NCBI GenBank assembly: GCA_964539035.1
Contig: CAZIHK010000010.1
Span: forward strand, 1 to 45,246
From: an uncultured Candidatus Saccharibacteria bacterium
Lineage (GTDB): Bacteria > Patescibacteriota > Saccharimonadia > Saccharimonadales > CAIOMD01
DNA: 45,246 nt
Direction: 5' to 3'
Notes under the pieces: generated by a model
What the model was told of the DNA's origin: nothing
Databases searched by the model: none
The model's input: only the letters and a program-made list of their open reading frames with translations
Position numbers and translations under genes: made by a program
Shown here: positions 5,999-25,316 of the stretch, in pieces
Numbering within the stretch: the first letter of the stretch is position 1
Layout of the letters: each line of letters begins with the position of its first letter

Positions 5999-6038
5999 GG
6001 AGAAAATGACTCACCATTTATGGTGGGTCATTTTCTCC
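5999..6038 (+). terminator. Hairpin immediately after the tRNA
   Basis: GGAGAAAATGACTCACC-atttat-GGTGGGTCATTTTCTCC, a 17-bp stem (one mismatch) followed by TTGTTG. Confidence 0.55.
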
Positions 6039-6164
6039 TTGTTGAAAGAAGTGGGATTCAACATGCACTGCGTAGCAGAGGGTTCGTGTAGCGAGCGGTC
6101 ACGCGCATGAGCTTGCTCAGAGCATAACCCGAGTGGATATAAGGAGCTTAAGCGACTGCTATCG

Positions 6165-6179
6165 CCTTCCTCTCCGCCA
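6165..6179 (+). repeat. Direct repeat of the tRNA-Ser 3' end (att-like)
   Basis: ccttcctctccgcca at 6165..6179 is identical to 5984..5998 (T-arm 3' strand, acceptor 3' strand and CCA). Confidence 0.6.
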
Positions 6180-6250
6180 TGACGTTTATACCTAAAGATA
6201 TTCGAGCTAAAAACCTATATGCTATATTTGGGTCATGGAATACAAAATCG

Positions 6251-6778
6251 TTACCGAATAGTGTCGAGCTCTTGTTTTAATGCTAGCCTTGCAAGGTTTC
6301 TAAATATTCCAGCGTAAACTTGAGATTCGTCATATCCTTCTCTAAATTCTAGCAACCAGCTATCCTCTAGCTCTTCTAGCCTTGACACCTTTAGTTGGGC
6401 ACCGCTTGTTGCGCTTTCCCATTCAAAATATTGGGCATCTTCTGAGCCAAATTCGGCAAAACCAGACATCCCGTTATGTAAATGTCGACGTGGTTCACCA
6501 CTGTATACCCTGCCACCAAAAGAGTTGGTCGCCATGTACACGCAATCGGGTTTGGCTATTTCTTCAAGGTTTGATATCTCATATTGATACATTCTATCTA
6601 TAGTTGGGAGGCCATTGCATAAACTTTGGGATATTTCGCTAACATTTGCAAAACTAATAACTATGCCAGGCCTAACTTTTTCAAAAAGTTCCTCAAAAGC
6701 AAGATCTTCGGTCTTAGCTACTTGGGATTCTCTCAATCCTTCATTTATTGCTTCTTTTTCGCTAATAGTCGTTTTCAT
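6251..6778 (-). CDS. Hypothetical protein, island family C copy 1 (175 aa)
   Basis: Paralog of 23690..24214. Shared motifs: S.SLCN.LP, PD.VY.AT.S.GGR...GEP.RH..HG.S..AEF...DA..FEW.SATSGA, ES.VYAGI..NLAR. Its start overlaps the upstream stop (TAATG). Confidence 0.65.
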   Translation of the reverse strand: MKTTISEKEAINEGLRESQVAKTEDLAFEELFEKVRPGIVISFANVSEISQSLCNGLPTIDRMYQYEISNLEEIAKPDCVYMATNSFGGRVYSGEPRRHLHNGMSGFAEFGSEDAQYFEWESATSGAQLKVSRLEELEDSWLLEFREGYDESQVYAGIFRNLARLALKQELDTIR

Positions 6779-7530
6779 TATTTAGATTCCTCTTTCTCTT
6801 CTTTTTCGCTAATATCCTTAAACATAAGTATGCTAATGTAAGCTATTTCTGGTTCGTCTATTCTGTAAATATCACCGAGCAATGGATTGTCATGTAATTC
6901 TTTGGCATCTACTCTACGGCCAAGCAAAAGCTCTATTGCCTCCAAATGGCTACCTAGGCTATCCCATAACTTCAAAAATACTGGTTCTATATCCGAAAGT
7001 CTTGCATCTGTCTCAAGCCCATGAATTTTACGTGTTACGGCACCATATTCATCTACGACTGGGCACTTTTTGCTAAATTCATTATTTAGTTTTGGGGTCT
7101 CAGTTATGCCTATAGCCTCATCCCTATTGGATAAATTGCTAGTAATATTGTCGGTATTGATATGCTCTAATCCTACAAATCCCAGGTGCCTAAAAATTGC
7201 AGTTTTTTTGGTTTGACCATCTTCACCCTGTTCTTCAATAACTTCGCGTCTAGAAAAAGCATAAACTGGAGCTAGACCCGATTGAGTTAGTTCATACTCC
7301 AGGGGTCTCATAAAATACGGGGCACCACCTATCATTGCCAATTCGCAATTCGACCTAAGTGCAATATCGGCTAATTGCCGTGCCCTAGCGACCATCTCGT
7401 ATATATTTGGTATTTCCTCAAAGGTCAGTAGGGCTTGTATATGGTGCTTGTCTTCTTCGCTTGGCTCAATTACACCTTGAGATATTTGCTCGGCGTTAGC
7501 CTGGTGTTGGGTTAAGTTAAAAATATTCAT
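6778..7530 (-). CDS. Hypothetical protein (250 aa), N-terminal alpha/beta-like domain
   Basis: AAGGAG SD before the ATG. Motifs ELAMIGGAPYFM...YAFSRRE...FRHLGF. No family named. Confidence 0.65.
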   Translation of the reverse strand: MNIFNLTQHQANAEQISQGVIEPSEEDKHHIQALLTFEEIPNIYEMVARARQLADIALRSNCELAMIGGAPYFMRPLEYELTQSGLAPVYAFSRREVIEEQGEDGQTKKTAIFRHLGFVGLEHINTDNITSNLSNRDEAIGITETPKLNNEFSKKCPVVDEYGAVTRKIHGLETDARLSDIEPVFLKLWDSLGSHLEAIELLLGRRVDAKELHDNPLLGDIYRIDEPEIAYISILMFKDISEKEEKEESK

Positions 7531-7557
7531 CTAGTGTCTCTCCTTAGTTATTTTATA

Positions 7558-7625
7558 TTGGGCTTGTTAAAGCTTCATAGGGCAGGTAAGCGTTGCCTAA
7601 CCTATGGAACCTTTAAGTGGTTCCG
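7558..7625. repeat. Conserved imperfect-palindrome element, copy a
   Basis: 68 nt, near-identical in its arms to 9081..9148. Stems CATAGG/CCTATG, GGCA/TGCC and GGAACC/GGTTCC are conserved while the internal loop differs. Confidence 0.6.
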
Positions 7626-7635
7626 GAGTTTTTGA

Positions 7636-7688
7636 TCAATAATCTGTGCTAATGGTCGTTTTCATTATTTAGATTCCTCTTCCTCTTG
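7636..7688 (-). pseudogene. Relic of a duplicated family-C gene start plus the preceding gene end
   Basis: 7648..7688 matches 6761..6801 at 38 of 41 nt. The relic reads ...EEEESK* then ATG (7665) MKTTISTDY* (stop 7638..7636), versus intact MKTTISEKE... at 6778. Confidence 0.5.
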
Positions 7689-7788
7689 TTACTTACCAAA
7701 AACCTTAAATATACAAAGATCGACACAGGCAAATTCAGCTTGATCGACTAGCCACAAACTACCCAATAATTCAGATTTTACTTGCATA

Positions 7789-8514
7789 TTATTCAACAAC
7801 CCCTAGGACTTTTTGCAGTGTTGATTGTCTCTTGCATTCTTCTTCGATTTTGGCCTGATCTTCAAGGGCTTTTTGCTGATCAATTGTTGTCCTGCGTAGC
7901 TGCTCTTCTGCATCCTCTTTGGCCAATCTTTTTTTACGTTTCGCTAAACATTCTTCTTCGTACTCCGACAATCCAGAACGGAATGCTTCAGCGTCTTCAA
8001 TACTTAACTCATTAAAGTTGTAGCTATATTCATTTAATTGATATGTGGAATCTTTATCCCCACTCCTTTTATTGCTGATTGATGCTGGATGCACTTTGCC
8101 TTCCCAGCTTAAAGTAATTTCTGGAGTAATTGGTAACTCTATTGAGCAATGAGCTACAGAGTTGTATCCCTCAATGTGATTGAACCCATAGGGTATCCTT
8201 ATTGTATAAAATCGCCCGGATTCTCTTGCTATTAAGGAAATTGTTTGTACTAACCTATCGATGCTCGCATAGCGTTTTTTTTCGTTTTCGATCTCTATCT
8301 CTTCTAATCGGGTTCTTTCGCTGCACAGATAATTGTCTGCAGCTTTTTCTCCTTGCGCAATTTTACGAGCTGAAGCGCCAAGAATGCCAAAAAGGCGAGT
8401 TGACTCACGATATGGTTTTTCAATATAAGCAGCACCGTAAGCAAGTTCTGCATCGTGAACTGGTTGAGCAAACATATTTATCGGCCTTCTTGTTTGTTTA
8501 TTCTTTTTATACAT
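7789..8514 (-). CDS. Hypothetical protein (241 aa) with charged helical C-terminus
   Basis: TAGGAG SD before the ATG. The C-terminal ~70 aa are E/K/R-rich (coiled-coil-like). No family recognised. Confidence 0.6.
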   Translation of the reverse strand: MYKKNKQTRRPINMFAQPVHDAELAYGAAYIEKPYRESTRLFGILGASARKIAQGEKAADNYLCSERTRLEEIEIENEKKRYASIDRLVQTISLIARESGRFYTIRIPYGFNHIEGYNSVAHCSIELPITPEITLSWEGKVHPASISNKRSGDKDSTYQLNEYSYNFNELSIEDAEAFRSGLSEYEEECLAKRKKRLAKEDAEEQLRRTTIDQQKALEDQAKIEEECKRQSTLQKVLGVVE

Positions 8515-8517
8515 AGT

Positions 8518-9057
8518 TTATCTCCTAAATTTACTTAGATGTTGGAACACGACTGCTGTTTGGGCGGAGTCGTATAACGGATTATGAGTACCTCCAGCAT
8601 AATCTTCTGGGCTAACAGTAATCCCGTATTTTTTGGCGTAGCTGTCTACCGAAGTAGGATCTTCGTTTATTTGTAGCAAGCTTGCCGATAAATCAATAAG
8701 AGGATAGGGGCCATCAAAGTCACCGATATAACCTCTGTCATGCATGTCTTTGATAAGCCCAGACTCTACCGGTGTGGCCATGTGTGCGATAACCAATGAT
8801 CCTAAATTCTTGGCCTTTTCGATGTAATAGTCAGAAAAATCTTTCAATAAGGCATCGTAAGTGCCATGTGATATGTCAATCGACTCCATCTGAGGTAATA
8901 CATTTTGTGCAACCCACTCGTTAACTTCTTCTTCAATTGGGCATCGACCAATAAATCTATCGGTCTCGTCGCAGCCTTCGTAATATATTGCGGCAACCGC
9001 AAATGGTTGGCCCCAAAGACCGTTAGTCTCTGCGTCAAAGCTAAATATTTTTGTCAT
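8518..9057 (-). CDS. DEDDh-type (DnaQ/RNase T-like) 3'-5' exonuclease
   Basis: Exo I FSFDAETNGL (DxE), an internal acidic motif, and Exo III GTHNPLYDSAQTA (Hx4D). AAGGA SD. Stand-alone 179-aa domain. Confidence 0.7.
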   Translation of the reverse strand: MTKIFSFDAETNGLWGQPFAVAAIYYEGCDETDRFIGRCPIEEEVNEWVAQNVLPQMESIDISHGTYDALLKDFSDYYIEKAKNLGSLVIAHMATPVESGLIKDMHDRGYIGDFDGPYPLIDLSASLLQINEDPTSVDSYAKKYGITVSPEDYAGGTHNPLYDSAQTAVVFQHLSKFRR

Positions 9058-9080
9058 TGTTTAAATCCTTTTTTAGTTTA

Positions 9081-9148
9081 TTGGGCTTGTTAAAGCTCCA
9101 TAGGATAGGCAAGTATTGCCAAGCCTATGGAACCTTTAAGTGGTTCCG
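9081..9148. repeat. Conserved imperfect-palindrome element, copy b
   Basis: ttgggcttgttaaagctccatagg...cctatggaacctttaagtggttccg; see 7558..7625. It lies 24 nt upstream of the exonuclease start codon (minus strand). Confidence 0.6.
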
Positions 9149-9225
9149 TTATTTATTTGGTCTGCCAACTGCGCTTTTTGTGAGGATCTTTATCTAGTGA
9201 TCATTATTAATTTTGTATATCTAGA

Positions 9226-9259
9226 CGTAGGCTTTTTGCGATTTAAGCCTACGATTTTT
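9226..9259 (+). terminator. Terminator-like hairpin plus T-run on the + strand, inside the operon-1 leader
   Basis: CGTAGGC-N14-GCCTACG followed by ATTTTTG. There is no upstream + strand gene, so its function is unclear. Confidence 0.3.
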
Positions 9260-9322
9260 GTGCGCTGATTAAAGCAGATTTTATTAGGTGTTTGTCTTTG
9301 GCTCTTTAGATGAGCCTCGGTA

Positions 9323-9351
9323 ATTATGATATAAAATTGATAATATGTCAA
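9323..9351 (-). promoter_or_regulatory. Putative sigma70-type promoter for operon 1 (minus strand)
   Basis: Minus-strand TTGACA (rc of 9346..9351), 17-nt spacer, CATAAT (rc of 9323..9328). The -35 lies within the conserved tATGTCAATa heptamer context. Confidence 0.45.
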
Positions 9352-9402
9352 TATACGATAGTAAATAAATATTATATTAGATAAGATTCATTCAAACAAA
9401 AA

Positions 9403-9431
9403 TTGACAAATTACAAAATTACTGAATAATT
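9403..9431 (+). promoter_or_regulatory. Putative promoter of TrmB paralog 1
   Basis: TTGACA 9403..9408, 17-nt spacer, ATAATT 9426..9431. The ATG follows 6 nt later. Confidence 0.45.
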
Positions 9432-9437
9432 AAGGTT

Positions 9438-10169
9438 ATGGAATTAGACATTTGCCTAAAAGCCGGGTTAAACGAATCGCAAGCTGTTACTTATTTGCAC
9501 TTAATTGACAACGGGCCACTTACACCGCCAGAGATTGCCGAAGACATTAGCGAGTCTAGAACCAATGTTTATAACATTTTGAATCAACTGCAAAAATTTG
9601 GATTAGTAGAGACCTCACCTGGTAAAAAATCTTTATTTATGGCCAAGAACCCTAGCGCACTAAAACAGCTGGCTGTTTTTAGAGCCCAACAAGCCCAAAA
9701 AACATTACAAGAAATAAACGCCTTATTACCAAATATAATGTCGAAATTCCGCCTATCTCATGACCAGGCTGGGGTGGTGCATATGGATGGCGTAGATGCT
9801 TACGAAGACATTTTTGATGATATTTTTAGAGAAAAATCAGAAGTAACGATTATTAGAAGCGCCCAAGAAACTAACGATCCAGCAATACTTATCGAAATCG
9901 AAAAGCAAATCAAAAGATTGAATAAAGCTAAAATAAATTGCAAAATTATTGAGCCAAAACTTTTTGAAAAATACAATCATAATCTGGCCAATAATATATT
10001 CGTAAAATACTCGGACGACAAACCCATGCCATCCCAGTTGATACTTTATGGCAATAATTTAGTTTTTAACACTTTTGTCGATGGGGTTTCTTGTACGGTA
10101 ATAACTGACCCTAACATTGCAGAAACCCATAGATTTATATTTGAGTTTATGTGGAATAATCTAAAATAA
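9438..10169 (+). CDS. TrmB-family wHTH transcriptional regulator, paralog 1
   Basis: N-terminus GLNESQAVTYLHLIDNGPLTPPEIAEDISESRTNVYNILNQLQKFGLVE is the TrmB-type winged helix. ~245 aa, like the three other copies. Confidence 0.75.
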   Translation: MELDICLKAGLNESQAVTYLHLIDNGPLTPPEIAEDISESRTNVYNILNQLQKFGLVETSPGKKSLFMAKNPSALKQLAVFRAQQAQKTLQEINALLPNIMSKFRLSHDQAGVVHMDGVDAYEDIFDDIFREKSEVTIIRSAQETNDPAILIEIEKQIKRLNKAKINCKIIEPKLFEKYNHNLANNIFVKYSDDKPMPSQLILYGNNLVFNTFVDGVSCTVITDPNIAETHRFIFEFMWNNLK

Positions 10170-10295
10170 ACTGACCTAAATCTTGTGTTAGTATTGGCTC
10201 TTGAATGAAACTTTAAAGGCAAACGAAGTGCTTACTTATAGCAGGATGAGTTACAATATTCATGATTAACATATTCAAAAAATGGATATATAGAG

Positions 10296-11117
10296 ATGAC
10301 AGATAGTCACATAATAACCACAGAAAAGCTGCTTCAAGACATAAAACCAGTCATTGATTATTACAAAAAACCGGAGGTGGCTGGTATTTTGTTATATGGT
10401 AGCTGGGGTAGGGGTGAGCAATTGCCGCATTCTGATGTAGATATTGCTGTTATTTGTAACAACAAACATGCGGTCGAAGAAATAGAAGACACTAACTGGG
10501 AAATTAACGATTATTTTGTAGAACCAACTAAGTACGATTACGAATATTTATTTACCCAATCTTTGCCAGAAAGGATGTTTCGTGAATTCGGCCATTTTTG
10601 GACAGAAGATACACGCTTTAATTGGCAACAATCCAAAATTCTTTATGACCAAAACGACATAGTTAAACAATTACTGGCTAAAAAAGCCTACCTACCAGCC
10701 AAAGAAGCAGAAGCTAACCTAAATGTAATTATTATTGTCATAGAAAGGTTGTTGAACTACCACTTGCCGAGATATGTAGATGCTGAAAAATACGTTGAAG
10801 CTCAAATACTATTGAATGGGCTGGTAAATCATGTGGTGCACTACATATACAACAAAAACGGGCTATTATTACCGTATTCATCAGCTTTATTTTATTGGTT
10901 TGATAAAAAAGATTTGCTGGGTAAGCAATCAGTATTGAATCTATTTAGTAATACCGGACTCAACAAAGATGAATGCTTACAGAGAATGAAATTATTTTGG
11001 GAAGTTTGCAATAAACTTGGGATTAAACTAAAAATACGAACCCAAAAAGAATATCTACAATACTTTTTTGAGCTCAACGGCACCAAAAAATGGGAAGATT
11101 ATTATGAAAAACAATAA
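10296..11117 (+). CDS. Nucleotidyltransferase-domain protein (Pol-beta superfamily, KNTase/ANT-like)
   Basis: GILLYGSWGRGEQLPHSDVDIAVI matches the GS-x9-12-DxD minimal NTase motif, followed by a helical C-terminal domain. Confidence 0.65.
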   Translation: MTDSHIITTEKLLQDIKPVIDYYKKPEVAGILLYGSWGRGEQLPHSDVDIAVICNNKHAVEEIEDTNWEINDYFVEPTKYDYEYLFTQSLPERMFREFGHFWTEDTRFNWQQSKILYDQNDIVKQLLAKKAYLPAKEAEANLNVIIIVIERLLNYHLPRYVDAEKYVEAQILLNGLVNHVVHYIYNKNGLLLPYSSALFYWFDKKDLLGKQSVLNLFSNTGLNKDECLQRMKLFWEVCNKLGIKLKIRTQKEYLQYFFELNGTKKWEDYYEKQ

Positions 11118-12027
11118 GGTTTTAATACTTACGGGCCCCGGTGGTTCCGGGAAATCTACAATTGCTGAGCTGTTGAATGATAAATACGGATATACTCTGA
11201 TTGATGGTGACCAATTAGATACCGAATTCTTCCCCGATGGTGGACAGTGGTTGCCGGAGAACAAATTGAGATTAGCGAATGCACATGACAAGATACTTAC
11301 CGCCACCAAAAAAGACTACCTCCTAGGTAAGAATATTGTTCTTGATTATATTATTTTTGGAGATTATTTGAATTTTTTTGATAAGTTTAAAAAAGAGTTT
11401 GGTAGTAATCTTGAGGTGAGAGTTTTACTACCCGGCGAAAAAGAAACCATTTTGCGAGATAAAGATAGGCAATGCTGGACAACTGGTGTCAAGCGCATAA
11501 AAACTGTACGAGAAGAGTTTATTAGTTTAAAGAATGGTATTGGAGAAGAGAACTTCATTGACACGTCAGATCAAACACCACAAGAAACGGCAGAGAATAT
11601 ATTTGAGACAACTACTAATTCGGCTAACCAAATTATGAAAAAGGTTGAATCAGCTGGCGGGGTAATAATTAACGAGTTCAGCGAAGTGGTAGTTGTATTT
11701 ACAGACACAAAAAGCTGGCAACTCCCAAAAGGTACGGTAGAAAAGGATGAAAGTTACTTTGATACTGCAACAAGAAAAATCAAAGAAGAAACGGGTTTAA
11801 AAAACCTTAATTATGTAAAAGAACTGCCTGCATATTCGAGGATATCCACACACGAGGATAACACCATTAGATATATTCATTATTTATTGTTCCGTACTAA
11901 AAAGCAAAATCTAACAGCAAGCGCGGAAGTGACAGAATGTAAGTGGGTACCAATTGAGGAGATCGAACACGAATTAACTCACCCAGAAGATAAACAATTT
12001 GTAAAAAATATTGTTAAAGAAATTTAA
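11104..12027 (+). CDS. Fusion protein: P-loop kinase-like domain plus NUDIX hydrolase domain
   Basis: Trimmed to the ATG at 11104 (MKNNKVLILTGPGGSGKSTIAELL, Walker A). The C-terminal NUDIX box is GTVEKDESYFDTATRKIKEETGL. It overlaps the upstream stop by 14 nt. Confidence 0.7.
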   Translation: MKNNKVLILTGPGGSGKSTIAELLNDKYGYTLIDGDQLDTEFFPDGGQWLPENKLRLANAHDKILTATKKDYLLGKNIVLDYIIFGDYLNFFDKFKKEFGSNLEVRVLLPGEKETILRDKDRQCWTTGVKRIKTVREEFISLKNGIGEENFIDTSDQTPQETAENIFETTTNSANQIMKKVESAGGVIINEFSEVVVVFTDTKSWQLPKGTVEKDESYFDTATRKIKEETGLKNLNYVKELPAYSRISTHEDNTIRYIHYLLFRTKKQNLTASAEVTECKWVPIEEIEHELTHPEDKQFVKNIVKEI

Positions 12028-12038
12028 CAAAATAAATC

Positions 12039-12563
12039 TTATTCCAAATAATCTAATACTTCTGCAATCAGTTTTATGGTTTTGGCATTATGGTCATTTT
12101 CGAACCATTTGTAAGAATAATCTCTTTCTATTAATAGGGCATCAACCTCGATATCTTGGGCCGGTTTGTAGTCCCACTTGTACATATCGCCGACCATTAA
12201 GGCATCGCTCTTTTTAAAACCGTGTGATGCAAGCAGCTCAATTATTCTTTCACTCTTGCCTTCGGGGTATTCTGGTGCAAATTGGATTTCATCCAATACG
12301 TCATCTAGGCCCATGCTGAGCACCATTTGCTTGCGGTTTACCAATGCCTCTTTGGGTGGTAATGGGCTGGTAGATAGCAAAACTCTTTTTATACCTAATT
12401 TGCCTATAGCCTCAAGCGTTTCATGCGCTATAGGTACGGCCTGCATCTCTGTAAAAGGGTCAGCTTCTTCGTCGGCATAGATATGCCAAGGCTCGGCGTA
12501 ATTTTTGTGTTTTGGCGGCTCCCAAAGAGTACCATCGCCATCAAAAAATATTATCTTTTTCAT
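12039..12563 (-). CDS. HAD-superfamily phosphatase
   Basis: Motif I IIFFDGDGTLW (DxDxT), motif II LLSTS, motif IV MVGDMYKWD. AAGGA SD. Confidence 0.7.
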   Translation of the reverse strand: MKKIIFFDGDGTLWEPPKHKNYAEPWHIYADEEADPFTEMQAVPIAHETLEAIGKLGIKRVLLSTSPLPPKEALVNRKQMVLSMGLDDVLDEIQFAPEYPEGKSERIIELLASHGFKKSDALMVGDMYKWDYKPAQDIEVDALLIERDYSYKWFENDHNAKTIKLIAEVLDYLE

Positions 12564-12591
12564 GTATTTATCCTTTTATAAGTAGGTTATA

Positions 12592-13695
12592 TTAGTTTTT
12601 TGCAAGTGCAGATTTATGCGCAGTAATGTACAAATCGCGACGGGCAGGGATACCAAGTTTTTTGTCTTCTTGGTCAGAGGCAAAATGTGGATCGTGCATG
12701 GTATCTATCATATTGCTGTTATCGTACTGGTCTTCTGTTATGCCGAGTCTTTGCATACTTAGATTAATACTATCCTCTACTACACCTCTAAAATCGGCCG
12801 TAAAATGATCTGTTGGTTCAAATGAGTCGCCAGGCTTCCAGTATGGATTGTCTAGATTTTCTACATAACCATCTTGGGCCCAACCAGGTAGTACTTGTTG
12901 CATTTTTTCGCTATCTGTAAAGCTGAATAAAAAATCCTGTTTTTCTATAGCGGATCGTAAAGTTAAACTCATAGTACTTATGTCTACATCACCATAATGT
13001 TCAATGGCTTTGCGTAAGGCATATTCTACGTAAGGCAAGCCATCTTGGCTATCTGGGCATGCAGTGGTGCCATATTGATTTGGCCTAGTAAGATGCATAA
13101 AGCCGATTATTGTTCGGCCATCTTGTGTTTTAAATTCGATATTTAAATCCCCGCAGTCAGCTAAACGGCAGGCTAGCACTGGGCAATCTTCTGCGTCAGA
13201 AAAAAAGGCGTTACAGCCATTTACTTGACGCCAACCTTCTGGGTTTGTAGAAGCACTGCCATTAGCTACATACATATCAAATTCGTCAGAAAAACCGACA
13301 TTATTGCCTGTCACGGCAACAATCATGGTTTGTTCTGGCTGAATGCCTAAGCAAGTAAGTGCATCTAAGGTGTTTTTTTCCGGGCAAAGGTTACCTTTTT
13401 CACGGTTTTGGCTAACGGTTAGATCTCTGCTAGCACATTCACCCAAGCAATAAGTGGTTGCCATTTTGACAGCCTCGGTAGGTGTTAAACCTTCGGTAAT
13501 GTATCGCGATTTAATTTCTTCGAAAGATGGGCAAGTTCTTGTCAGCGTACTACCGACAACATCAACCATGCTGATGGCAGATATAGTTTCGTCACCGACG
13601 GGGTATGTTACTAAGCCGGGCACTTCTATTACATCTCTGGGTTGTTCGTTGTTTGTGTTTTTCATTTTGTTATTTTCTTGGTTAAAGTTACGCAT
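12592..13695 (-). CDS. Hypothetical protein with divergent YfiH/LACC1 (DUF152, Cu-oxidase_4)-like core
   Basis: Trimmed to the ATG at 13695 (AAGGAG SD). CRLADCGDLNIEF...IIGFMHLTRPN resembles tADCxPv...aaHAGWRG, and the C-terminal HFASDQ...ARRDLYI resembles fFSyRRd..tGR. The first conserved His is not evident. Confidence 0.4.
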   Translation of the reverse strand: MRNFNQENNKMKNTNNEQPRDVIEVPGLVTYPVGDETISAISMVDVVGSTLTRTCPSFEEIKSRYITEGLTPTEAVKMATTYCLGECASRDLTVSQNREKGNLCPEKNTLDALTCLGIQPEQTMIVAVTGNNVGFSDEFDMYVANGSASTNPEGWRQVNGCNAFFSDAEDCPVLACRLADCGDLNIEFKTQDGRTIIGFMHLTRPNQYGTTACPDSQDGLPYVEYALRKAIEHYGDVDISTMSLTLRSAIEKQDFLFSFTDSEKMQQVLPGWAQDGYVENLDNPYWKPGDSFEPTDHFTADFRGVVEDSINLSMQRLGITEDQYDNSNMIDTMHDPHFASDQEDKKLGIPARRDLYITAHKSALAKN

Positions 13696-13733
13696 ATAAT
13701 AACTCCTTATGGTAAAAATGTCAATGTTGTTAC

Positions 13734-14465
13734 CTAAATTGATCTTATATAGTTTACGCAATCTGGGCAAAATCCAGCATCCATTTTGCGATGGTGTCGT
13801 AATTCGCTTGAAAGGCCAACAGCTTCTTCTGTGCTAATGGATTGGTGCATAGTACAAAAATTTGCACAGTGTCCTGCATAAATAGGCAAAAATTCACCTC
13901 GTGGGTCAGGGTTGGCTATTGTAGCTTGGTCCAAACCAACCATATGCCCGTACTCGTGTCTCGCGATATGTCTGGTTACATCACATTTTTGCTGTTCTGT
14001 AAGATTGTCTGACATGATGTATTCGTACAGAGACTGTACAGTTGTATTATCTAAATTTGCGCCCAACACGAAGTTATTTAAACCACCTTCGCCATCTGAT
14101 ATGGTCATACCTCTGGCTGTTAAAATAAAGTTATGGAAGTAGCCTTGTGGACCAGTTGAGGTCTGTATTAAGTGATACAAATTATCGAACAAAAGCTGAC
14201 CCTCTTGGACATTTGGGTTAGGATTGTAGATTGTAGAATCATCTAGCAGTTGTTCTAGTGTTGCATCGGTACCAACTATTTGGTCGTAATCGACATTAAC
14301 TTTTGGCATACGGCTCATCATTTGGACTACGTCATCTATGCCAAACATAGCTGCTTGGTATAGGTGAGGGTAGTAAAGTTCTAATTGACTATCAATAATC
14401 AATCTCATTTCTGGCACTTGTGGCTCTTGCTCGTAGTTTTGTGGGTATTTTGGCTCTTTATACAT
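13734..14465 (-). CDS. Zinc metallopeptidase, archaemetzincin (M54)-like
   Basis: ARHEYGHMVGL (HExxHxxG), then GHCANFCTM and CPDC, reminiscent of the archaemetzincin HExxHxxGx3Cx4CxM...CxxC signature with altered spacing. Confidence 0.55.
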   Translation of the reverse strand: MYKEPKYPQNYEQEPQVPEMRLIIDSQLELYYPHLYQAAMFGIDDVVQMMSRMPKVNVDYDQIVGTDATLEQLLDDSTIYNPNPNVQEGQLLFDNLYHLIQTSTGPQGYFHNFILTARGMTISDGEGGLNNFVLGANLDNTTVQSLYEYIMSDNLTEQQKCDVTRHIARHEYGHMVGLDQATIANPDPRGEFLPIYAGHCANFCTMHQSISTEEAVGLSSELRHHRKMDAGFCPDCVNYIRSI

Positions 14466-14467
14466 GC

Positions 14468-14950
14468 TTAATCAGCAATTCTTGATTTTAGATATTCTCT
14501 AATCTGTTCTGTGGTAAGATTTATTGCGCCATCTAATCTTGCCAGACCATTAATTTGATGGCTTACACCAATACCGGTGTCTAGATTGAAAGTCGCCACG
14601 CTTTCAAGCTCACCTTCTGGGGTATCTTTGATCTCCAAGTTAGCTACCTGTTCATTGCTTTCCGTATCTTCATATATAGACAGACACCCTACTGAAGTTT
14701 CACCTCGAAAAAAGGCATGGACTATAGGGCGGTCAAAATCATGCCAACTATGTGGTGTTATGTATAACTCTTCGCTCGTAGTTTTATCCTCTAGTTCAAT
14801 CGAAAAAGATTGAGAACTGTCCACTGAATTTATTAATTTCTCACTTTTTGACTTAATCAATGACAGCAATGTTTGGTAGCTATTATTGATTTTTTCTTCA
14901 TTCGAGACAGTCTTTTTTTCTGCTTTAAATGTATTTCCTAAATTTTCCAT
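14468..14950 (-). CDS. Hypothetical protein (160 aa)
   Basis: ORF tightly packed in operon 2 (2-nt gap to the next gene). No family recognised. Confidence 0.6.
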   Translation of the reverse strand: MENLGNTFKAEKKTVSNEEKINNSYQTLLSLIKSKSEKLINSVDSSQSFSIELEDKTTSEELYITPHSWHDFDRPIVHAFFRGETSVGCLSIYEDTESNEQVANLEIKDTPEGELESVATFNLDTGIGVSHQINGLARLDGAINLTTEQIREYLKSRIAD

Positions 14951-14969
14951 ATTGTTCTCCTTTATATAA

Positions 14970-15455
14970 TTAATTTCTTTTAGCTTGCAGTGAGCTACTT
15001 GCGTAAACTCCGTGAGTTTCTTCGTATTCTCTGGTGAGTATTACATCACCTAATAGTTCAATTTCTTCTATTCTGATAACAGGGAAGTCAACTTCCTCGT
15101 AGCTTGGCTCTCGGACGATTTTTGATGAGCGGCCAACTAAGTCTTCTAGAGCTTGCATTTCGTGGTCAGCAAGAATTGATTCTTGTGGCAGATATACCTG
15201 AGCTGTTTCTGGTATGTGGTCTATTAATCGTTCGGGTAAATCATTTGGAATGGCTATTTGTTCTTGAAGTTTTTGAGCTTGTGCAAAGATGTAGGCTATT
15301 TTAGTACAAAATATTTCGTACATATTGCGGCTAGCAAAGTTTCTCGCATAAAATGTAGACTCAATGCCATTGTCTAATGACTTAAGTTCGTTTTCTAATA
15401 GGGCAAGAATATGCATATCACCATGTTCTGTGCCTTCCTCGTAAGTCGTTTTCAC
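14970..15455 (-). CDS. Hypothetical protein (161 aa), first gene of operon 2
   Basis: GTG start at 15455 with ACGGAG SD. No family recognised. Confidence 0.6.
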   Translation of the reverse strand: MKTTYEEGTEHGDMHILALLENELKSLDNGIESTFYARNFASRNMYEIFCTKIAYIFAQAQKLQEQIAIPNDLPERLIDHIPETAQVYLPQESILADHEMQALEDLVGRSSKIVREPSYEEVDFPVIRIEEIELLGDVILTREYEETHGVYASSSLQAKRN

Positions 15456-15481
15456 TATGTAACTCCGTTTATTACAAAACT

Positions 15482-15510
15482 AATATAGCATATTGTCAAT
15501 TATATGTCAA
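15482..15510 (-). promoter_or_regulatory. Putative promoter for operon 2 (minus strand)
   Basis: Minus-strand TTGACA (rc 15505..15510), 17 nt, TATATT (rc 15482..15487). A second TGTCAAT heptamer lies at 15494..15500. Confidence 0.45.
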
Positions 15511-15563
15511 TACATAATTAACAATAATATTAAACAGTTATAATAATAATTGTAAAAGTAAGA

Positions 15564-15592
15564 TTAACAAATACGATTATATCTGTTAATAT
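15564..15592 (+). promoter_or_regulatory. Putative promoter of TrmB paralog 2
   Basis: TTAACA 15564..15569, 17 nt, TAATAT 15587..15592. The ATG follows 6 nt later. Confidence 0.4.
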
Positions 15593-15598
15593 GCTCAT

Positions 15599-16378
15599 AT
15601 GACTACAGACCAGCTAGTAGAAGTCGGCCTAACTCTGTCGCAGGCAAAAGCTTACCTTGCACTTTTAAAACATGGTGCTATGACCCCCACGGTATTAGCA
15701 GGTTTAATCGACGAAAGTAGAACAAATACCTATGCAGTGCTGGACAGATTGGTGGGTCTTAAGCTAGCAGAGCAAGTAAAAGGAACCAAAAAAGTTTATA
15801 AAGCCGCTAATCCAACGCATCTAGAAGAATATGTTAGACATCAAAAAGAAGTAGCCGAAGAAAAACAAGAAAAAGCTCGCCGACTAATGCCGGGTTTAAT
15901 GGATATGTATTTTAAAACGGATGCAGAGCCAGGAATTAGGTTTTTTAGGGGTAGGGAAGAATTGAAAAAGATTTTTATGGAGCAGTTAGAAACGCGGCAG
16001 ACGATTTACTTAATAAGATCTTCGGCCGACATCAAATACTACGATTTTGATTTTGTTAGCAATATAAGGTTGGCGGCTGCAAAATATGGCATCCAGCGCT
16101 ATGGGATATGCCCAGACATTAAAGAGACAAATCCAACAAGGCAAGACGACAAAAGAAGCAATTTAGATAGAACCTGGGTAGATAAAGACGATTATAATGC
16201 CGAGGTAGAGTGGACTATATTTGGCGATAAAGTATCGGCAATATCGTTTGGCAAAGAAGGGGTGGGGATGATTATTGAGAGCCCACAAATTGCCGAAAGC
16301 ATGCGCCAACTTTTTAATTTAGCCAAGGCCGGGGCAAAGGCTCGTTACCCTAAACCAAAATGGGGATATAAAAGCTAG
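15599..16378 (+). CDS. TrmB-family wHTH transcriptional regulator, paralog 2
   Basis: GLTLSQAKAYLALLKHGAMTPTVLAGLIDESRTNTYAVLDRLVGLKLAE. Confidence 0.75.
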   Translation: MTTDQLVEVGLTLSQAKAYLALLKHGAMTPTVLAGLIDESRTNTYAVLDRLVGLKLAEQVKGTKKVYKAANPTHLEEYVRHQKEVAEEKQEKARRLMPGLMDMYFKTDAEPGIRFFRGREELKKIFMEQLETRQTIYLIRSSADIKYYDFDFVSNIRLAAAKYGIQRYGICPDIKETNPTRQDDKRSNLDRTWVDKDDYNAEVEWTIFGDKVSAISFGKEGVGMIIESPQIAESMRQLFNLAKAGAKARYPKPKWGYKS

Positions 16379-16386
16379 AACTATAG

Positions 16387-17292
16387 CTAAAGAGCTTTGA
16401 ACAAAAGCTCTGTTTTAGTAATTATCGGTTTATTTAACCATTCTATACCAATATCAAAGTCTTTTTGATAGCTTTTGTCGTAAAGTTCAGTGATCTCTTT
16501 TTTCAAATTCACTAAATTACGGTCTCTCGCTTGCCACTTACTGTTCTCGAATATTTTATATCCCTTAGAGGCAAAAACATCCAATTGCAGATTTCGTAGT
16601 TTTGAAATAACAATAGATTCTATTGTCGTAACAATAAGTTGATGGCTTAAGACTTCTAAATCATCTATAGTTTTATCATTTTGCTGTAATTTTAGAATTC
16701 TTGCCAATTCTTGAGAATAACTATCAATGCTGATTCTTTCTAGTCTCTTAGTCTTTTCGCTTAAATCCTCGACGAATTCTAACAACTCTTTAGTTGGCTC
16801 AATCACTAGCTCTATCTGTTCTGCAGAGATTATAAGTTTATCTCGCTGGTCTTTGGCTAAATTGGCTAACTCATCCTTTTGAGCCCCCAATTTGTAAAAA
16901 GCAAGTTGTTTGCGCCCTGCAACATATTTTAGCGGGAAGCCAGTAATCTCGTCGCCACTGATAATAGCGTCAGTATACAAACCATAATCGACTCGGTAAT
17001 CTAAGGGCTTTTTTATTATAAAAATTTTACCTACCTCTTCTTTGTTTCGTGATGTTTCGCTTTCGCTAAAATGTTTATTTTCGCCCATAGCCCACCTTAA
17101 TGAATGGGCTAAGTCTGTAGAAATAGTGGCTCTACCTTCTCGAGCCGTAAAACCTGCATCTTTTATGTTTTCGGCGTTTGCTAAAGAGGCTGTACCATGT
17201 AGGAAATACTTAACACTGGCTAGAGATTCATCCCCATCGGATGAAATCAATCGTTCGTCATAAAGTATTTCGTGATTTTTAGATTGCTCCAT
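16387..17292 (-). CDS. Hypothetical protein (301 aa); N-terminal domain with HGT motif (possible ART-fold), helical C-terminus
   Basis: YFLHGTASLANAENIKDAGFTAREGRATISTDLAHSLRWA resembles the hHGT....I...GF...R..v.lS motif of Tpt1/KptA- and PARP-type NAD-binding folds. By-eye only. Confidence 0.3.
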   Translation of the reverse strand: MEQSKNHEILYDERLISSDGDESLASVKYFLHGTASLANAENIKDAGFTAREGRATISTDLAHSLRWAMGENKHFSESETSRNKEEVGKIFIIKKPLDYRVDYGLYTDAIISGDEITGFPLKYVAGRKQLAFYKLGAQKDELANLAKDQRDKLIISAEQIELVIEPTKELLEFVEDLSEKTKRLERISIDSYSQELARILKLQQNDKTIDDLEVLSHQLIVTTIESIVISKLRNLQLDVFASKGYKIFENSKWQARDRNLVNLKKEITELYDKSYQKDFDIGIEWLNKPIITKTELLFKAL

Positions 17293-17342
17293 ACAAGTTA
17301 GCTCTTACGATATTTAACAGTTTAATTTAATATTTTATTTAT

Positions 17343-17585
17343 CTAAATTATCTTGATTTTTTGTATAGCCAAAGTAGATAGCAAAAGCGTACTTGGCAGG
17401 ATCAAAGCGCTAAACCAAGGTTTGCTGGCATTTAGCCAGGCAAGAAATAGTCCTGCAAACAGATAGGTAATCACAAAAATTATTGATTTTCGGGTTTTAC
17501 TAAGCTCCCATGCCTTATCGGCAGTAACTTTTTTGTTGCGCAATTCTATTTTTGCTATGCGCTTTTCGAGCTCAATATTATTCAT
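17343..17585 (-). CDS. Small membrane protein (80 aa): N-terminal helix plus two TM segments
   Basis: ELEKRIAKIELRNKKVTADKAWE followed by two hydrophobic stretches. Confidence 0.55.
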   Translation of the reverse strand: MNNIELEKRIAKIELRNKKVTADKAWELSKTRKSIIFVITYLFAGLFLAWLNASKPWFSALILPSTLLLSTLAIQKIKII

Positions 17586-17603
17586 ACTATAATGTTTTGT
17601 CTG

Positions 17604-18320
17604 TTAACTGTTATTAAAAAAATTGGAATAGTCTGATTCAATATCAATTTCTTGTAATTTTAGATTAGATGTTTTAACCCCAAAAACATCATCATAAGAG
17701 TTGTCATAACAACCATCCAATAAATTATCCATACTAAATAAGTAGCAAGATAATTTTTTGCAAATTTCATATTGTTTTTGTTCGTAATCTATACTAGAAT
17801 CGTTTTTTTCATCAATGATTGGTGGTCCCATTGTGAAATCAGAAAAATCATTGTAAGCAGAAAAATCATGGTAAGCTATAAACATATTAGCTATATCTGG
17901 GTCGCAAAAACCTACGGGCTGGCTAAGCTGGCTAAAAAAGACTGGCCCACCAAAGACTGTTGATATCATTAAATCAAATGGGGTTCTGGTTTCTTGTGGA
18001 GCTAGAATTATGTCCTGATTGGTGGCCATATTAGTGTTTGGCGAAACTAAACACACATTAGCTTCACAATATTCTTCATCAGCAAACGTTACCAAAGCTA
18101 ACTGCTTTAAGATGTTTCGTTTGTCCACCGAGCAATTTTTACAATCGGGGTGTACGTCAACATAGCAAATATCTCCAAAAATAGGAGGATGCAAAAGGGG
18201 CGAAGGATTTAAATCTAGCGACTGCCAACTGTCATTGGCGGGAGTAAACAAACCATCTTGCTTAACCCATCTATAGCCGTCTAGCTCCCATTTCTCATTT
18301 GCGTTAAATTGTTCTTTCAT
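17604..18320 (-). CDS. Hypothetical protein, island family A copy 1 (238 aa)
   Basis: Shares WELDGYRW..QdG.F.PA...WQSLDL.P, GD.CY...HPDC, AN..LVS, IIL.P.ETR.PFD, VFF.QLS.PVGF with 18329..19000 and 19734..20564. Confidence 0.65.
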   Translation of the reverse strand: MKEQFNANEKWELDGYRWVKQDGLFTPANDSWQSLDLNPSPLLHPPIFGDICYVDVHPDCKNCSVDKRNILKQLALVTFADEEYCEANVCLVSPNTNMATNQDIILAPQETRTPFDLMISTVFGGPVFFSQLSQPVGFCDPDIANMFIAYHDFSAYNDFSDFTMGPPIIDEKNDSSIDYEQKQYEICKKLSCYLFSMDNLLDGCYDNSYDDVFGVKTSNLKLQEIDIESDYSNFFNNS

Positions 18321-18328
18321 AAAAGAGG

Positions 18329-19000
18329 CTATATTCCATTATCATCGTTAAATATTTGTTTGCTAACACAATAACAACTTAGTTTACTTACAATATCGCA
18401 ATGCTTTGATATTAGTTCTTGTCGCGAGTCCTTATGGTCTAGAATAGGGTTGCTTCTTTTTTCTTTAGGAAAGTCAGGTGCAAATCCTAGAGTACTTAGG
18501 GCCAATTTATCAATATTTTCTTGATCAATATATCCGACTGGCATACTTAGTTGATTATAATAAACTGTTCCACAACTTATCAGTTCGATTGCAATATCAA
18601 AAGGAATTCTTGCATCTTTTGAGTCTAGAATTACATCTCGGGAAACAGCCATATCTGTTTGATTAGTGGCTAGCATGAAGTTTGCCAAACCTTCTTCTTC
18701 ATAAACCATAAGAACACAACCAAGTTGTTTTTCGCTGACTTGGCACTTACTTAATAAGCAATCTGGGTGTTGGCTCAGATAGCAAAAATCACCCGGCCAG
18801 GGGACTTCTGTAATTGATACTGGCGATAAATCCAAGGGTTGCCATTCTTTGTCGGCTGGTACAAAAATACCGTTTTGGCGCATCCAGCGGTAGCCGTCTT
18901 CTGGCTCCCATCTCTCTATTAATTCATGATTATTATTTTTCGCTACATCATCGTTGTTTATATTGTAATTTTCCAAATTATTAGCATTATATTTTTCCAT
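18329..19000 (-). CDS. Hypothetical protein, island family A copy 2 (223 aa)
   Basis: Family A motifs as above. AAGGA SD. Confidence 0.65.
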   Translation of the reverse strand: MEKYNANNLENYNINNDDVAKNNNHELIERWEPEDGYRWMRQNGIFVPADKEWQPLDLSPVSITEVPWPGDFCYLSQHPDCLLSKCQVSEKQLGCVLMVYEEEGLANFMLATNQTDMAVSRDVILDSKDARIPFDIAIELISCGTVYYNQLSMPVGYIDQENIDKLALSTLGFAPDFPKEKRSNPILDHKDSRQELISKHCDIVSKLSCYCVSKQIFNDDNGI

Positions 19001-22726: not shown

Positions 22727-22755
22727 ATAATATTACATAATTGTATTAATGTCAA
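22727..22755 (-). promoter_or_regulatory. Putative promoter for operon 3 (minus strand)
   Basis: Minus-strand TTGACA (rc 22750..22755), 17 nt, TATTAT (rc 22727..22732). Confidence 0.45.
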
Positions 22756-22818
22756 TGATGAGTTATAATAAATATTAGTTAATAAATAGATATAGAATCT
22801 AATAATGACAAAACAAAT

Positions 22819-22847
22819 TTGACATATTAAGATAGATATGTAATCAT
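22819..22847 (+). promoter_or_regulatory. Putative promoter of TrmB paralog 3
   Basis: TTGACA 22819..22824, a 16-17 nt spacer, TAATCA/AATCAT. The ATG at 22855 follows 7 nt later. Confidence 0.4.
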
Positions 22848-22854: not shown

Positions 22855-23601
22855 ATGATAAAAGAAGCTTTATTAGAACAAGCAGGTCTTAACCAGAGCG
22901 AAGTAAAGGTATATAAACGACTGCTAGAATATGGCGAGCTTGCCCCACCTAGATTATCTGAACTAACAGGCCTGGCACGCCAAAACACCTATGCAGCACT
23001 AAAAACATTAACAAAAAAAGAGCTGATTGAGGTCGTATCACGCAGGAAAAAGCTTGCCTATCAGGTGCAACATCCCAATAAACTGGTCGAACTGGTCGAT
23101 AAACAGATAGATGAGTCTAAAATGGTCCAAAAATCCCTAAAAGCCAACATGCCAGAATTAATAAGTTTATTTAGTTTGGCTAGCAGCAAGCCCGGCATTA
23201 TTTATTTTGATGGGCTGGAAAGTATTAAAAATATATATTTAGATGGCTTAAGGTCTAAACCAGAAGAAGTATTGGTATTTAGGTCTACGCACGACGATGA
23301 TAAACTCGGGGTTTTTTTGACAAGTTTTAAGAAGCGCAGAGCTCTTAACGGCACAAAAACTAAAATGATTTCGCAAACGATACCCACCAAAGAGAAAATA
23401 GAAGAAGATAAACAACTACTCATACAACGAAAGTACGTACCTGACGATATTTTTCACCTAGATACTGAAATTGCAATTGCAGATAATCAAGTTTCTTTTA
23501 TAACTTTCGATAAGCAAATTAAAGGGTTTGTTATAACAAGTAAAGAGGTGGCACAGACTCTGCGAACAATTTTTGAGAGTCTCTGGGTAGCTGAATTTTA
23601 A
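22855..23601 (+). CDS. TrmB-family wHTH transcriptional regulator, paralog 3
   Basis: GLNQSEVKVYKRLLEYGELAPPRLSELTGLARQNTYAALKTLTKKELIE. Confidence 0.75.
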   Translation: MIKEALLEQAGLNQSEVKVYKRLLEYGELAPPRLSELTGLARQNTYAALKTLTKKELIEVVSRRKKLAYQVQHPNKLVELVDKQIDESKMVQKSLKANMPELISLFSLASSKPGIIYFDGLESIKNIYLDGLRSKPEEVLVFRSTHDDDKLGVFLTSFKKRRALNGTKTKMISQTIPTKEKIEEDKQLLIQRKYVPDDIFHLDTEIAIADNQVSFITFDKQIKGFVITSKEVAQTLRTIFESLWVAEF

Positions 23602-24449: not shown

Positions 24450-24478
24450 AGTATGCCATAAAATATATTATATGTCAA
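24450..24478 (-). promoter_or_regulatory. Putative promoter for family C copy 2 (minus strand)
   Basis: Minus-strand TTGACA (rc 24473..24478) within tATGTCAATa, 17 nt, CATACT (rc 24450..24455). Confidence 0.4.
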
Positions 24479-24517: not shown

Positions 24518-24537
24518 TGTCAATAAAGGATTGACAA
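24518..24537. promoter_or_regulatory. Perfect inverted repeat TGTCAAT-N6-ATTGACA (candidate operator)
   Basis: tgtcaat aaagga attgaca. The right arm is the -35 of the TrmB paralog 4 promoter. Confidence 0.45.
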
Positions 24538-24559
24538 TTATATTAATATAACATATAAT
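24531..24559 (+). promoter_or_regulatory. Putative promoter of TrmB paralog 4
   Basis: TTGACA 24531..24536, 17 nt, TATAAT 24554..24559. The ATG at 24567 follows 7 nt later. Confidence 0.55.
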
Positions 24560-24566: not shown

Positions 24567-25316
24567 ATGGATTATATAGAAATACTAAAAAAACTCGGCC
24601 TCAATGAATCTCAAGCAAAAGCCTATTTAGCGCTAGTAGGTAACGATAACTTGACCCCGCCAGACTTAGCAGTAGAGATAGGAGAAAAAAGAACAGCTAC
24701 ATATATGATATTGGCTCGATTAGAAGAGCTGGGTTTGGCAAGTAAAGCAGAGGGTAGTAGAGCAAGATATATCGCCGAAAGCCCGACAAAATTAAAAGAA
24801 ATACTTGTAGCAAAACAGTCTGAGCATCAACAGCTCCAGCGTTCCTTGATATCGATCATGCCAGCACTAAATGCAGAATATAACATTGCATATCAAAAAC
24901 CCGGGGTTGTGTACATGGAGGGGATCCAGGGCTTGAAGTATGTTTATAACGAAATAATTGATAATGGAGAGGATATAATGTTATTACCAAGCCAAGACGT
25001 ATTTGATAATAGCGAATTAGTGAAACTTATCGAAGGCAATGTAGAAAAACAAAGAAAAAGGGGTATCAATACAAGAACCATATATCCCAAAACCGATAAA
25101 GCCTATCTGGAGGCAAAAAAGCATACAGACGCCAATGTATCTGTTAGGTACTTCGGTAACTCGTCAATGCAGACGGCACAGATAATCCTATACGCCAATA
25201 CGGTTGCAATCACCACATTCCAGCCTGGGATATTTAATACAGTTATTACAAATCCATTATTAGCGAACACATTTAAGGGCTATTTTGAAGATATGTGGGC
25301 AGCAGGCGAATGCTAA
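24567..25316 (+). CDS. TrmB-family wHTH transcriptional regulator, paralog 4
   Basis: The track ORF starts at 24558, but that ATG overlaps the consensus -10 box. MDYIEILKKLGLNESQAKAYLALVGNDNLTPPDLAVEIGEKRTATYMILARLEELGLAS aligns with the other paralogs starting from the ATG at 24567. Confidence 0.75.
   Translation: MDYIEILKKLGLNESQAKAYLALVGNDNLTPPDLAVEIGEKRTATYMILARLEELGLASKAEGSRARYIAESPTKLKEILVAKQSEHQQLQRSLISIMPALNAEYNIAYQKPGVVYMEGIQGLKYVYNEIIDNGEDIMLLPSQDVFDNSELVKLIEGNVEKQRKRGINTRTIYPKTDKAYLEAKKHTDANVSVRYFGNSSMQTAQIILYANTVAITTFQPGIFNTVITNPLLANTFKGYFEDMWAAGEC

Follow-up and report, generated by a model that had tools for sequence, protein, structure and literature searches.

Four TrmB-like regulators and their divergent promoters

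The stretch of DNA analysed here, called the window throughout, is 45,246 nucleotides long and is contig C10 of the assembled genome (G000) of an uncultured Candidatus Saccharibacteria bacterium, an assembly of 918 kb in 128 contigs with 38.7% G+C. The arginyl-tRNA synthetase of this genome shares 44 to 51% identity with those of 80 genomes, nearly all of them labelled Candidatus Saccharibacteria or Saccharimonadales, and this places the organism in the Saccharimonadales, within the Candidate Phyla Radiation/Patescibacteria. The window carries an island of four paralogous plus-strand genes for TrmB-like regulators, starting at 9438, 15599, 22855 and 24567, each divergent from a minus-strand operon. 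The subject of this analysis is the four intergenic regions in between (regions 1 to 4), together with the promoters and candidate operators within them.

All four paralogs contain the PF01978 winged-helix domain, at 43.1 to 49.5 bits against a Pfam cut-off of 25.6, and their mutual identity is only 25 to 31%. Paralog 1 (9438..10169, plus strand; 243 amino acids) matches the domain at 49.5 bits and has the recognition helix RTNVYN. The helix is RTNTYA in paralog 2 (15599..16378, plus strand), which is a member of a widespread core clade, RQNTYA in paralog 3 (22855..23601, plus strand), and RTATYM in paralog 4 (24567..25316, plus strand), which has an orthologue of 50% identity in the related genome G007. 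The ATG at 24567 is the true start of paralog 4, since the ATG at 24558 lies inside a -10 box (TATAAT). Pfam matches in the four proteins are limited to N-terminal helix-turn-helix families, and the C-terminal sugar/effector-binding domain PF11495 was not detected. All four also score far below the NCBIfam equivalog cut-offs, with 18 to 21 bits for TrmB and TrmBL1 (cut-offs 600 to 650) and 21 to 25 bits for TrmBL2 (NF041141, cut-off 530).

The AlphaFold model of paralog 1 (mean predicted local distance difference test score 90.9) shows a winged-helix domain, a long helix (residues 73 to 107) and a C-terminal alpha/beta domain. With this model, the top Foldseek matches are all TrmBL2 chains (E values from 6.6e-13, 247 to 259 aligned columns), followed by TrmB, and TrmBL2 is also the best match in a sequence profile search (E = 1e-10). 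A search of paralog 1 against 5.8 billion proteins found no close relative, returning only the query itself, and therefore region 1 could not be subjected to comparative footprinting. A search of genome contigs for loci related to paralog 4 alone gave no match. Of 41 close relatives, 24 have TrmB-like genes, and in a sample of 151 genomes from across the order the count is 59. For comparison, 68 TrmB-like upstream regions were extracted across the Saccharimonadales.

Direct reading places TGTCAA at 9346-9351, 15494-15499, 15505-15510, 22750-22755, 24473-24478 and 24518-24523. The four main copies all share one context, ATGTCAAT with a or t before it and a or g after it. On the minus strand these copies are the -35 boxes of the operon-side promoters. 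In region 1 (9323..9351, minus strand) the -35 TTGACA at 9351-9346 is followed after 17 nt by the -10 CATAAT at 9328-9323, and a leader of about 260 nt runs up to the ATG at 9057. Region 2 has two such promoters (15471..15523, minus strand), one with its -35 at 15510-15505, 17 nt and the -10 TATATT at 15487-15482, and a second with its -35 at 15499-15494 and TGTAAT at 15476-15471. The promoters of region 3 (22727..22755, minus strand; -35 at 22755-22750, 17 nt, -10 TATTAT at 22732-22727) and region 4 (24450..24478, minus strand; -35 at 24478-24473, 17 nt, -10 CATACT at 24455-24450) have the same layout. The initial annotation had given these TGTCAA positions, the 17-nt spacing and the minus-strand -10 hexamers correctly, as judged by direct reading and a consensus scan. 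Its plus-strand TTGACA or TTAACA boxes at 9403, 15564, 22819 and 24531, with a -10 16 to 17 nt on, were likewise confirmed. All are of the sigma-70 type, with TTGACA-like and TATAAT-like hexamers 16 to 18 nt apart, and they match the consensus at 9 to 12 of 12 positions. When the interval 6000-25600 (19.6 kb) was scanned, they accounted for 5 of the 6 sites scoring at least 11 out of 12.

The operon-side promoters are unusually close to the consensus. A perfect TTGACA with a usable -10 is present in 4 out of 4 operon-side regions versus 21 of 420 other upstream regions (Fisher p = 1e-5), and the window contains ATGTCAAT 8 times, where shuffled sequence has 2.24 +/- 1.5 and none of 100 shuffles reaches 8. 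The octamer ATTGACAT is identical in all four operon-side promoters. Its T after TTGACA is not conserved in relatives, and its conservation within the window may be due to chance. In regions 2 and 4 a TATAAT follows directly after TTGACA; as a -10 box it was rejected, because it has no -35 upstream.

A palindrome at the regulator-side -35 box

Regulator-side -35 boxes form one half of a 19-bp inverted repeat, here called O1. The repeat was scored as the number of matches out of 7 between the 7-mer located five bases upstream and the reverse complement of the -35 heptamer. Region 4 (24518..24559, plus strand) has a perfect example, TGTCAAT-aaagg-ATTGACA at 24518-24536 (7/7), whose right half contains the -35 TTGACA at 24531-24536, followed after 17 nt by the -10 TATAAT at 24554-24559 (12 out of 12 promoter matches). 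The two heptamers had been described as separated by six nucleotides, at 24518..24537; the spacer is in fact five (AAAGG). In region 3 (22806..22847, plus strand) the repeat is TGACAAA-acaaa-TTTGACA at 22806-22824 (6/7), with the -35 TTGACA at 22819-22824, 17 nt and the -10 AATCAT at 22842-22847. Region 2 (15551..15592, plus strand) has TGTAAAA-gtaag-ATTAACA at 15551-15569 (5/7) over the -35 TTAACA at 15564-15569, with the -10 TAATAT at 15587-15592 after 17 nt. Region 1 (9390..9430, plus strand) has only the weak palindrome ATTCAAA-caaaa-ATTGACA at 9390-9408 (4/7), with the -35 TTGACA at 9403-9408, 16 nt and the -10 AATAAT at 9425-9430.

The -35 heptamer as such is largely ordinary. The initial annotation had argued that TGTCAAT/ATTGACA is longer than a -35 box needs to be, and had offered its frequency at promoters across the genome as the test. 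The argument fails that test. As controls, 37 intergenic promoters with TTGACA and a usable -10 were gathered from the same genome, all of them from outside the island. In these, TTGACA is preceded by A in 62% and followed by A in 62% and by T in 19%. (T)ATTGACA(T) is also found at the groES promoter (C3:2882) and between the genes of a winged-helix-turn-helix phosphoribosyltransferase and AAA_14 pair that is not TrmB-like (C125:3333/3382). These frequencies and the reuse at the two loci make ATTGACA the organism's normal extended -35 context.

Both of these loci carry repeats of their own. At the second (locus L001, C125 3333-3440), back-to-back ATGTCAAT/ATTGACAT -35 boxes stand 49 nt apart between a phosphoribosyltransferase-like regulator, apparently leaderless, and an AAA_14/DUF4143 ATPase, and a distinct palindrome, GTTTACAG-TTTA-CTGTAAAC, covers the spacer and the -10. 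At the groES promoter (C3 2783-2934), tATTGACA is followed by an inverted repeat, TTAGCACTC-N9-AAGTGCTAA, resembling the controlling inverted repeat of chaperone expression (CIRCE). In this reduced genome it would serve as a heat-shock operator of the conventional HrcA type.

The palindrome, on the other hand, is rare. A score of 6/7 is reached by none of the 37 control promoters and by just 1 of 429 other TTGACA sites, while the island has 7/7 at 24531 and 6/7 at 22819 on the plus strand and 6/7 at 15505 on the minus strand. A scan of the whole genome for TGTSAAT-N5-ATTSACA found a single 14/14 match, at 24518, and a single 13/14 match, at 15505. An inverted repeat of the form 7-N5-7, scoring 6/7 or better and located between -53 and -45 from the ATG, is present in 31 of the 68 upstream regions from relatives, against 3.2% of control blocks. 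Where the right half reads xxT[G/C]AC (41 loci), the repeat starts at -48 in 27 and at -49 in 11.

This fixed distance is explained by a leaderless layout. From the end of the -10 to the ATG there are 7, 6, 7 and 7 nt in regions 1 to 4. In relatives the distance is 6 to 7 nt at 37 of 41 loci, and a Shine-Dalgarno-like motif was found at none of the 41. All four regulator genes of the window thus have a -10 box 6 to 8 nt before the start codon and lack a Shine-Dalgarno sequence, and their mRNAs are probably leaderless, with transcription predicted to start at the ATG itself. The first genes of the operons do carry Shine-Dalgarno-like sequences.

Two versions of the candidate operator are found in relatives, TGTCAAT-N5-ATTGACA and TGTGAAT-N5-ATTCACA. 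In the second the -35, TTCACA, departs from the consensus, which a TGn extended -10 offsets. Although it is outside the promoter, the left half changes along with the right half, TGTGAAT accompanying ATTCACA and TGTCAAT accompanying ATTGACA. As the left half has no role in the promoter, this co-variation fits the need of a dimeric DNA-binding protein rather than that of a promoter. The left half of O1 was also considered as the -35 of a second, minus-strand promoter, but was rejected in the absence of an acceptable -10 behind it.

The central base of the half-site follows one residue of the recognition helix (residues 41 to 53), the one directly after its invariant tyrosine (Y+1). Lysine at Y+1 goes with C in 21 of 21 cases (the Lys clade below), and in all 20 cases with another residue (Ala, Met, Asp, Glu or unassigned) the base is G. 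Paralogs 1 to 4 have Asn, Ala, Ala and Met at this position, all non-lysine, and all of their half-sites are of the TGAC or TAAC type. The association is consistent with direct read-out of the base, although it falls short of statistical proof. On the protein tree the lysine proteins need up to four changes, of which well-supported branches force only one.

Some distant TrmB-like subfamilies (L023, L025, L031, L032, L057, L058 and L068-L072) have different promoter repeats. A GACGAC...GTCGTC repeat goes with the helix RSSVYE, TTGGCAAC-N-TTGACAA with RG(T/S)TY(E/D), and a TGCTAAACTGTTCAC block with RTKVYR.

In five Lys-clade genomes of 0.7 to 1.0 Mb the palindrome, with at most one mismatch, occurs at the regulator's own locus only, and a reversed-pattern control gave 0 matches. 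In a comparison of the region 4 spacer with its orthologous spacer in G007, the only blocks kept are the operon-side -10, TATATGTCAATAC (the -35), TAACAG and O1, with CAGTATGnCATAAAA and TATATGTCAATAC being the blocks conserved on the operon side. The AACAG in this comparison belongs to a further conserved box, the third, which lies some 10 nt upstream of O1, at 24504-24508 in region 4 and at 15533-15537 in region 2. An AACAG/CTGTT box (aTCTGTTa or tAACAGAt) is found at 27 of 52 TrmB-like loci, compared with 6% of control windows (p about 3e-19; loci L004-L059), in either orientation at the same place, and is absent from regions 1 and 3.

Region 2 is unusual in having three copies of ATTAACA/TGTTAAT within 143 bp (15517-15523, 15563-15569 and 15584-15590, the last a TGTTAAT half-site that overlaps the -10), against 14 in the whole 45-kb window. 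This clustering suggests that paralog 2 reads an A at the central position, its half-site having shifted from TGAC to TAAC, that is, to ATTAACA. Judged from the repeats, paralog 4 has a clear putative operator on the regulator side, paralog 3 a good one and paralog 2 a moderate one, and that of paralog 1 is doubtful.

The operon side and the two-way switch

On the operon side a palindromic partner to the -35 heptamer is visible in region 2 alone, where TGTCAAT-acata-ATTAACA at 15505-15523 on the minus strand (O2) scores 6/7. The operon-side scores in regions 1, 3 and 4 are only 4/7, 3/7 and 1/7. Full candidate operators on both divergent promoters are therefore present only in region 2. The four regions had been proposed to be autoregulated bidirectional switches, and it is for region 2 alone that this part of the proposal holds, regions 1, 3 and 4 lacking the second site.

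Relatives show how a second site may be arranged. TGTCAA is kept upstream of 40 of 52 TrmB-like genes even though the neighbouring cargo genes differ. In the Lys clade it is the -35 of the divergent gene at 23 of 24 loci, and TTCAC is located 4 to 6 nt on at 17 of these 23. TGTCAAT with TTCAC is on this evidence a putative hybrid operator with the same geometry as O1, its promoter-proximal half staying as TGTCAA presumably because it must remain a -35 box. The distance between the operon-side and regulator-side sites is 52 to 56 or 63 to 64 bp (loci L012-L049), about five or six helical turns, which suggests binding on the same face of the DNA and possibly looping or tetramer formation. Among the non-lysine group, TGTCAA is found upstream at 17 of 28 loci, and region 2 of the window is the only one of these with a partner. 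A TTGAC or TTAAC partner is present in none of the 16 non-lysine relatives that have an upstream TGTCAA.

The operon-side heptamer in regions 1, 3 and 4 is thus best read as a very strong -35 box, and at most as a lone half-site for the regulator. The leaders in these three regions are 200 to 260 nt long and hairpin-rich, and have no match in Rfam, a scan of the window at the gathering threshold having identified tRNA-Ser alone. Operon output may be governed by these structured leaders instead.

What is carried opposite the regulator varies from genome to genome (loci L004-L072), consisting mostly of acidic orphans with a few genes conserved within subclades. It is the regulator with its promoter design that stays constant, whereas the cargo can be swapped. 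A switch by inversion of the DNA between the opposed heptamers was also considered and rejected, since the arms are only 7 bp, the segment of 45 to 57 bp is too short and there was no other support.

Proposed mechanism, alternatives and known systems

Taken together, these observations can be accommodated in a simple model. Each intergenic region holds two back-to-back sigma-70-type promoters with a consensus TTGACA in the usual tATTGACA context. The -35 box of the regulator gene is the promoter-proximal half of TGT(C/G)AAT-N5-ATT(G/C)ACA, whose centre falls about 39 nt ahead of the start codon. The adjacent TrmBL2-like regulator would occupy O1 as a dimer, cover the -35 and repress its own leaderless transcript, and in region 2, as in the Lys clade generally, a second site would let the regulator repress the divergent gene too. 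Such autorepression, with a TrmB-like dimer on O1 blocking the -35 of its own leaderless gene, is probable, though by no means certain. Both the identity of the binder as the TrmB-like protein and the choice of repression over activation are deduced from sequence, the latter from the near-consensus promoters. The suggestion in the initial annotation that the -35 doubles as an operator for the TrmB paralogs thus survives in a modified form: it applies to the -35 as half of a conserved 19-bp regulator-side palindrome, and not to the heptamer on its own.

Several points weigh against autorepression through O1. Region 1, whose coordinates stand at the head of the initial annotation, has a palindrome of only 4/7, and O1 of region 2 reaches only 5/7. 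The gene calls behind the genome-wide controls came from a simple open reading frame heuristic. A palindrome centred near -39 would also suit a class II-type activator. The association between helix residue and operator base may reflect a single evolutionary event, as the approximately unbiased test does not reject a single Lys clade (p = 0.135) and there is just one secure independent contrast.

One alternative is that the heptamer at both -35 boxes of each region is a common operator of the four paralogs, giving two-way switches with possible cross-talk. It draws on the identity of ATTGACAT at four operon-side promoters, with a T that follows TTGACA in only 19% of promoters elsewhere; on the perfect -35 in 4 out of 4 regions against 5% elsewhere; on the retention of TGTCAA at 40 of 52 loci despite differing cargo; and on the 6/7 site of region 2. 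The hybrid operators of the Lys clade (17 of 23) would add that regulators of this family can sit on a divergent -35. However, the partner halves are poor in regions 1, 3 and 4 (4, 3 and 1 of 7) and are missing, as TTGAC or TTAAC, from all 16 non-lysine relatives in which TGTCAA lies upstream. Relatives do not keep the T after TTGACA, and ATTGACA(T) recurs at unrelated promoters. Strong consensus promoters are, moreover, what one would expect under control by a repressor or by a long regulatory leader, and therefore a perfect -35 need not be an operator. This alternative is considered unlikely, although it deserves more weight than the two that follow.

The palindromes might instead be a by-product of back-to-back consensus -35 boxes in AT-rich DNA, read by no regulator at all. 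The ATTGACA context is generic, opposed TTGACA-type hexamers form inverted repeats automatically, and the total of promoter-like sites is the same as in shuffles (69 versus 67.2). Such a by-product would not be expected to hold a fixed offset from the ATG, to be unique in the genomes tested or to be absent at 6/7 from all of the control promoters. Nor is the left half of O1 a second promoter, as it has no good -10, and in the Lys clade the -35 leaves the consensus (TTCACA) and the left half changes along with it (TGTGAAT), a change that the promoter does not require. This explanation is accordingly very improbable. Somewhat less so, but still hard to favour, is the idea that the palindrome is a genuine protein site at which the TrmB-like protein activates in a class II-like manner, or to which some other conserved DNA-binding protein binds. 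With its centre some 39 nt upstream of the presumed start of transcription, the site is placed like those of class II activators, the AACAG/CTGTT box about 10 nt beyond it may point to an additional partner, and archaeal members of the TrmB family activate as well as repress (PMC4158304). Activation appears unneeded, however, where promoters are already near the consensus (12 out of 12 in region 4, and with an extended -10 in the Lys clade), and another binder would have to account for an operator base that follows the recognition helix of the adjacent regulator and for a site found only beside that regulator's gene.

The layout proposed here, with a regulator that represses itself through O1, recalls the classical divergent switches of the TetR-tetA and MarR types, in which the regulator is divergent from its operon, a palindromic operator lies over the -35 and autoregulation is expected. 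The divergent regulator, the back-to-back promoters and the palindrome overlapping the -35 are all shared with the window. The protein family differs, as does the use of the consensus -35 itself as the half-site and the leaderless regulator mRNA, and in three of the four window regions no operon-side operator is visible.

Closer by family are the archaeal TrmB, TrmBL1 and Tgr proteins, which share the PF01978 domain with the window proteins. Their sites are palindromes at core promoter elements, including TACT-N3-AGTA, TATCAC-N5-GTGATA (the Thermococcales glycolytic motif) and TACT-N7-8-GAGTA, and autoregulation has been described or proposed for some members (PMC4158304). The window palindromes likewise lie over core promoter elements, with binding here predicted from the sites, and have the same 6-N5-6 geometry as TATCAC-N5-GTGATA. 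They differ from it in half-site sequence and orientation (GTSAAT...ATTSAC versus TATCAC...GTGATA). The window proteins also have no detectable sugar-binding effector domain, and they appear to be local, with one site per regulator and no large regulon.

The nearest structural match, TrmBL2 of the Thermococcales (PDB 5box, 5bpd, 5bpi, 5bqt), is in the same length class (about 250 to 260 amino acids) and has the same order of winged helix, long coiled-coil helix and C-terminal alpha/beta domain, without a match to the TrmB sugar-binding domain family, as in the window proteins. Identity is only about 16%, and the NCBIfam equivalog scores are far below the cut-off. TrmBL2 is described as an abundant chromatin-type protein found on coding and intergenic DNA (PMC4158304), and its binding is reported to be non-specific. 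The window proteins, unlike it, each appear from their sequence to be tied to one specific palindrome at their own promoter, in a bacterial host with promoters of the sigma-70 type.

It is an evenly balanced question whether all of this can be joined into one picture for the order. In that picture a lineage-wide, TrmBL2-like family of the Saccharimonadales (Candidate Phyla Radiation), leaderless and self-repressing, would have each member wired to a 19-bp operator with the -35 as a half-site, and one helix residue (Lys versus Ala, Met or Asn) would set the central base (C versus G). The regulators would be local gatekeepers of swappable orphan-gene cassettes, and the four copies in the island would be parallel switches with specificities that are starting to diverge (ATTGACA, TTTGACA and ATTAACA).

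A literature search found no paper linking TrmB with Saccharibacteria or Patescibacteria, and almost nothing is known of gene control in the ultra-small and mostly uncultured Saccharibacteria. A leaderless, self-regulated gene whose product has a readable operator and a candidate residue for specificity would be a concrete piece of their regulatory code, one that corrects the simpler idea of the heptamer alone as operator. Regulator and operator can be tested with synthetic DNA and purified protein, with no need for culture, and the operators would mark the orphan-gene cassettes of variable islands as being under dedicated control.

Some further features of the island and of related loci were seen in passing. 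A further ATGTCAAT is part of an 11 out of 12 promoter-like site, TTGACA-17-TATTAT, at 13696-13724 on the minus strand. It falls in the overlap of the open reading frames 13734-14465 and 12592-13770, just upstream of AGGAG and an in-frame ATG, and could serve as an internal promoter, the true gene then being shorter. No Pfam family matched the products of the minus-strand operons. The first gene of operon 3 (21718-22542, minus strand), which likewise has no Pfam match, has HFHPSYLFNYLFSPRD, by eye similar to the JAB/MPN metalloprotease motif (HxH...SxxD). In G007 and G008 the leaders beyond the operon-side promoters (L004 2300-2480, minus strand; upstream of L009) share about 60 nt of conserved sequence, ataaggtgcgaycgat...cctctcattcattcgatcttgcatacagtatg.

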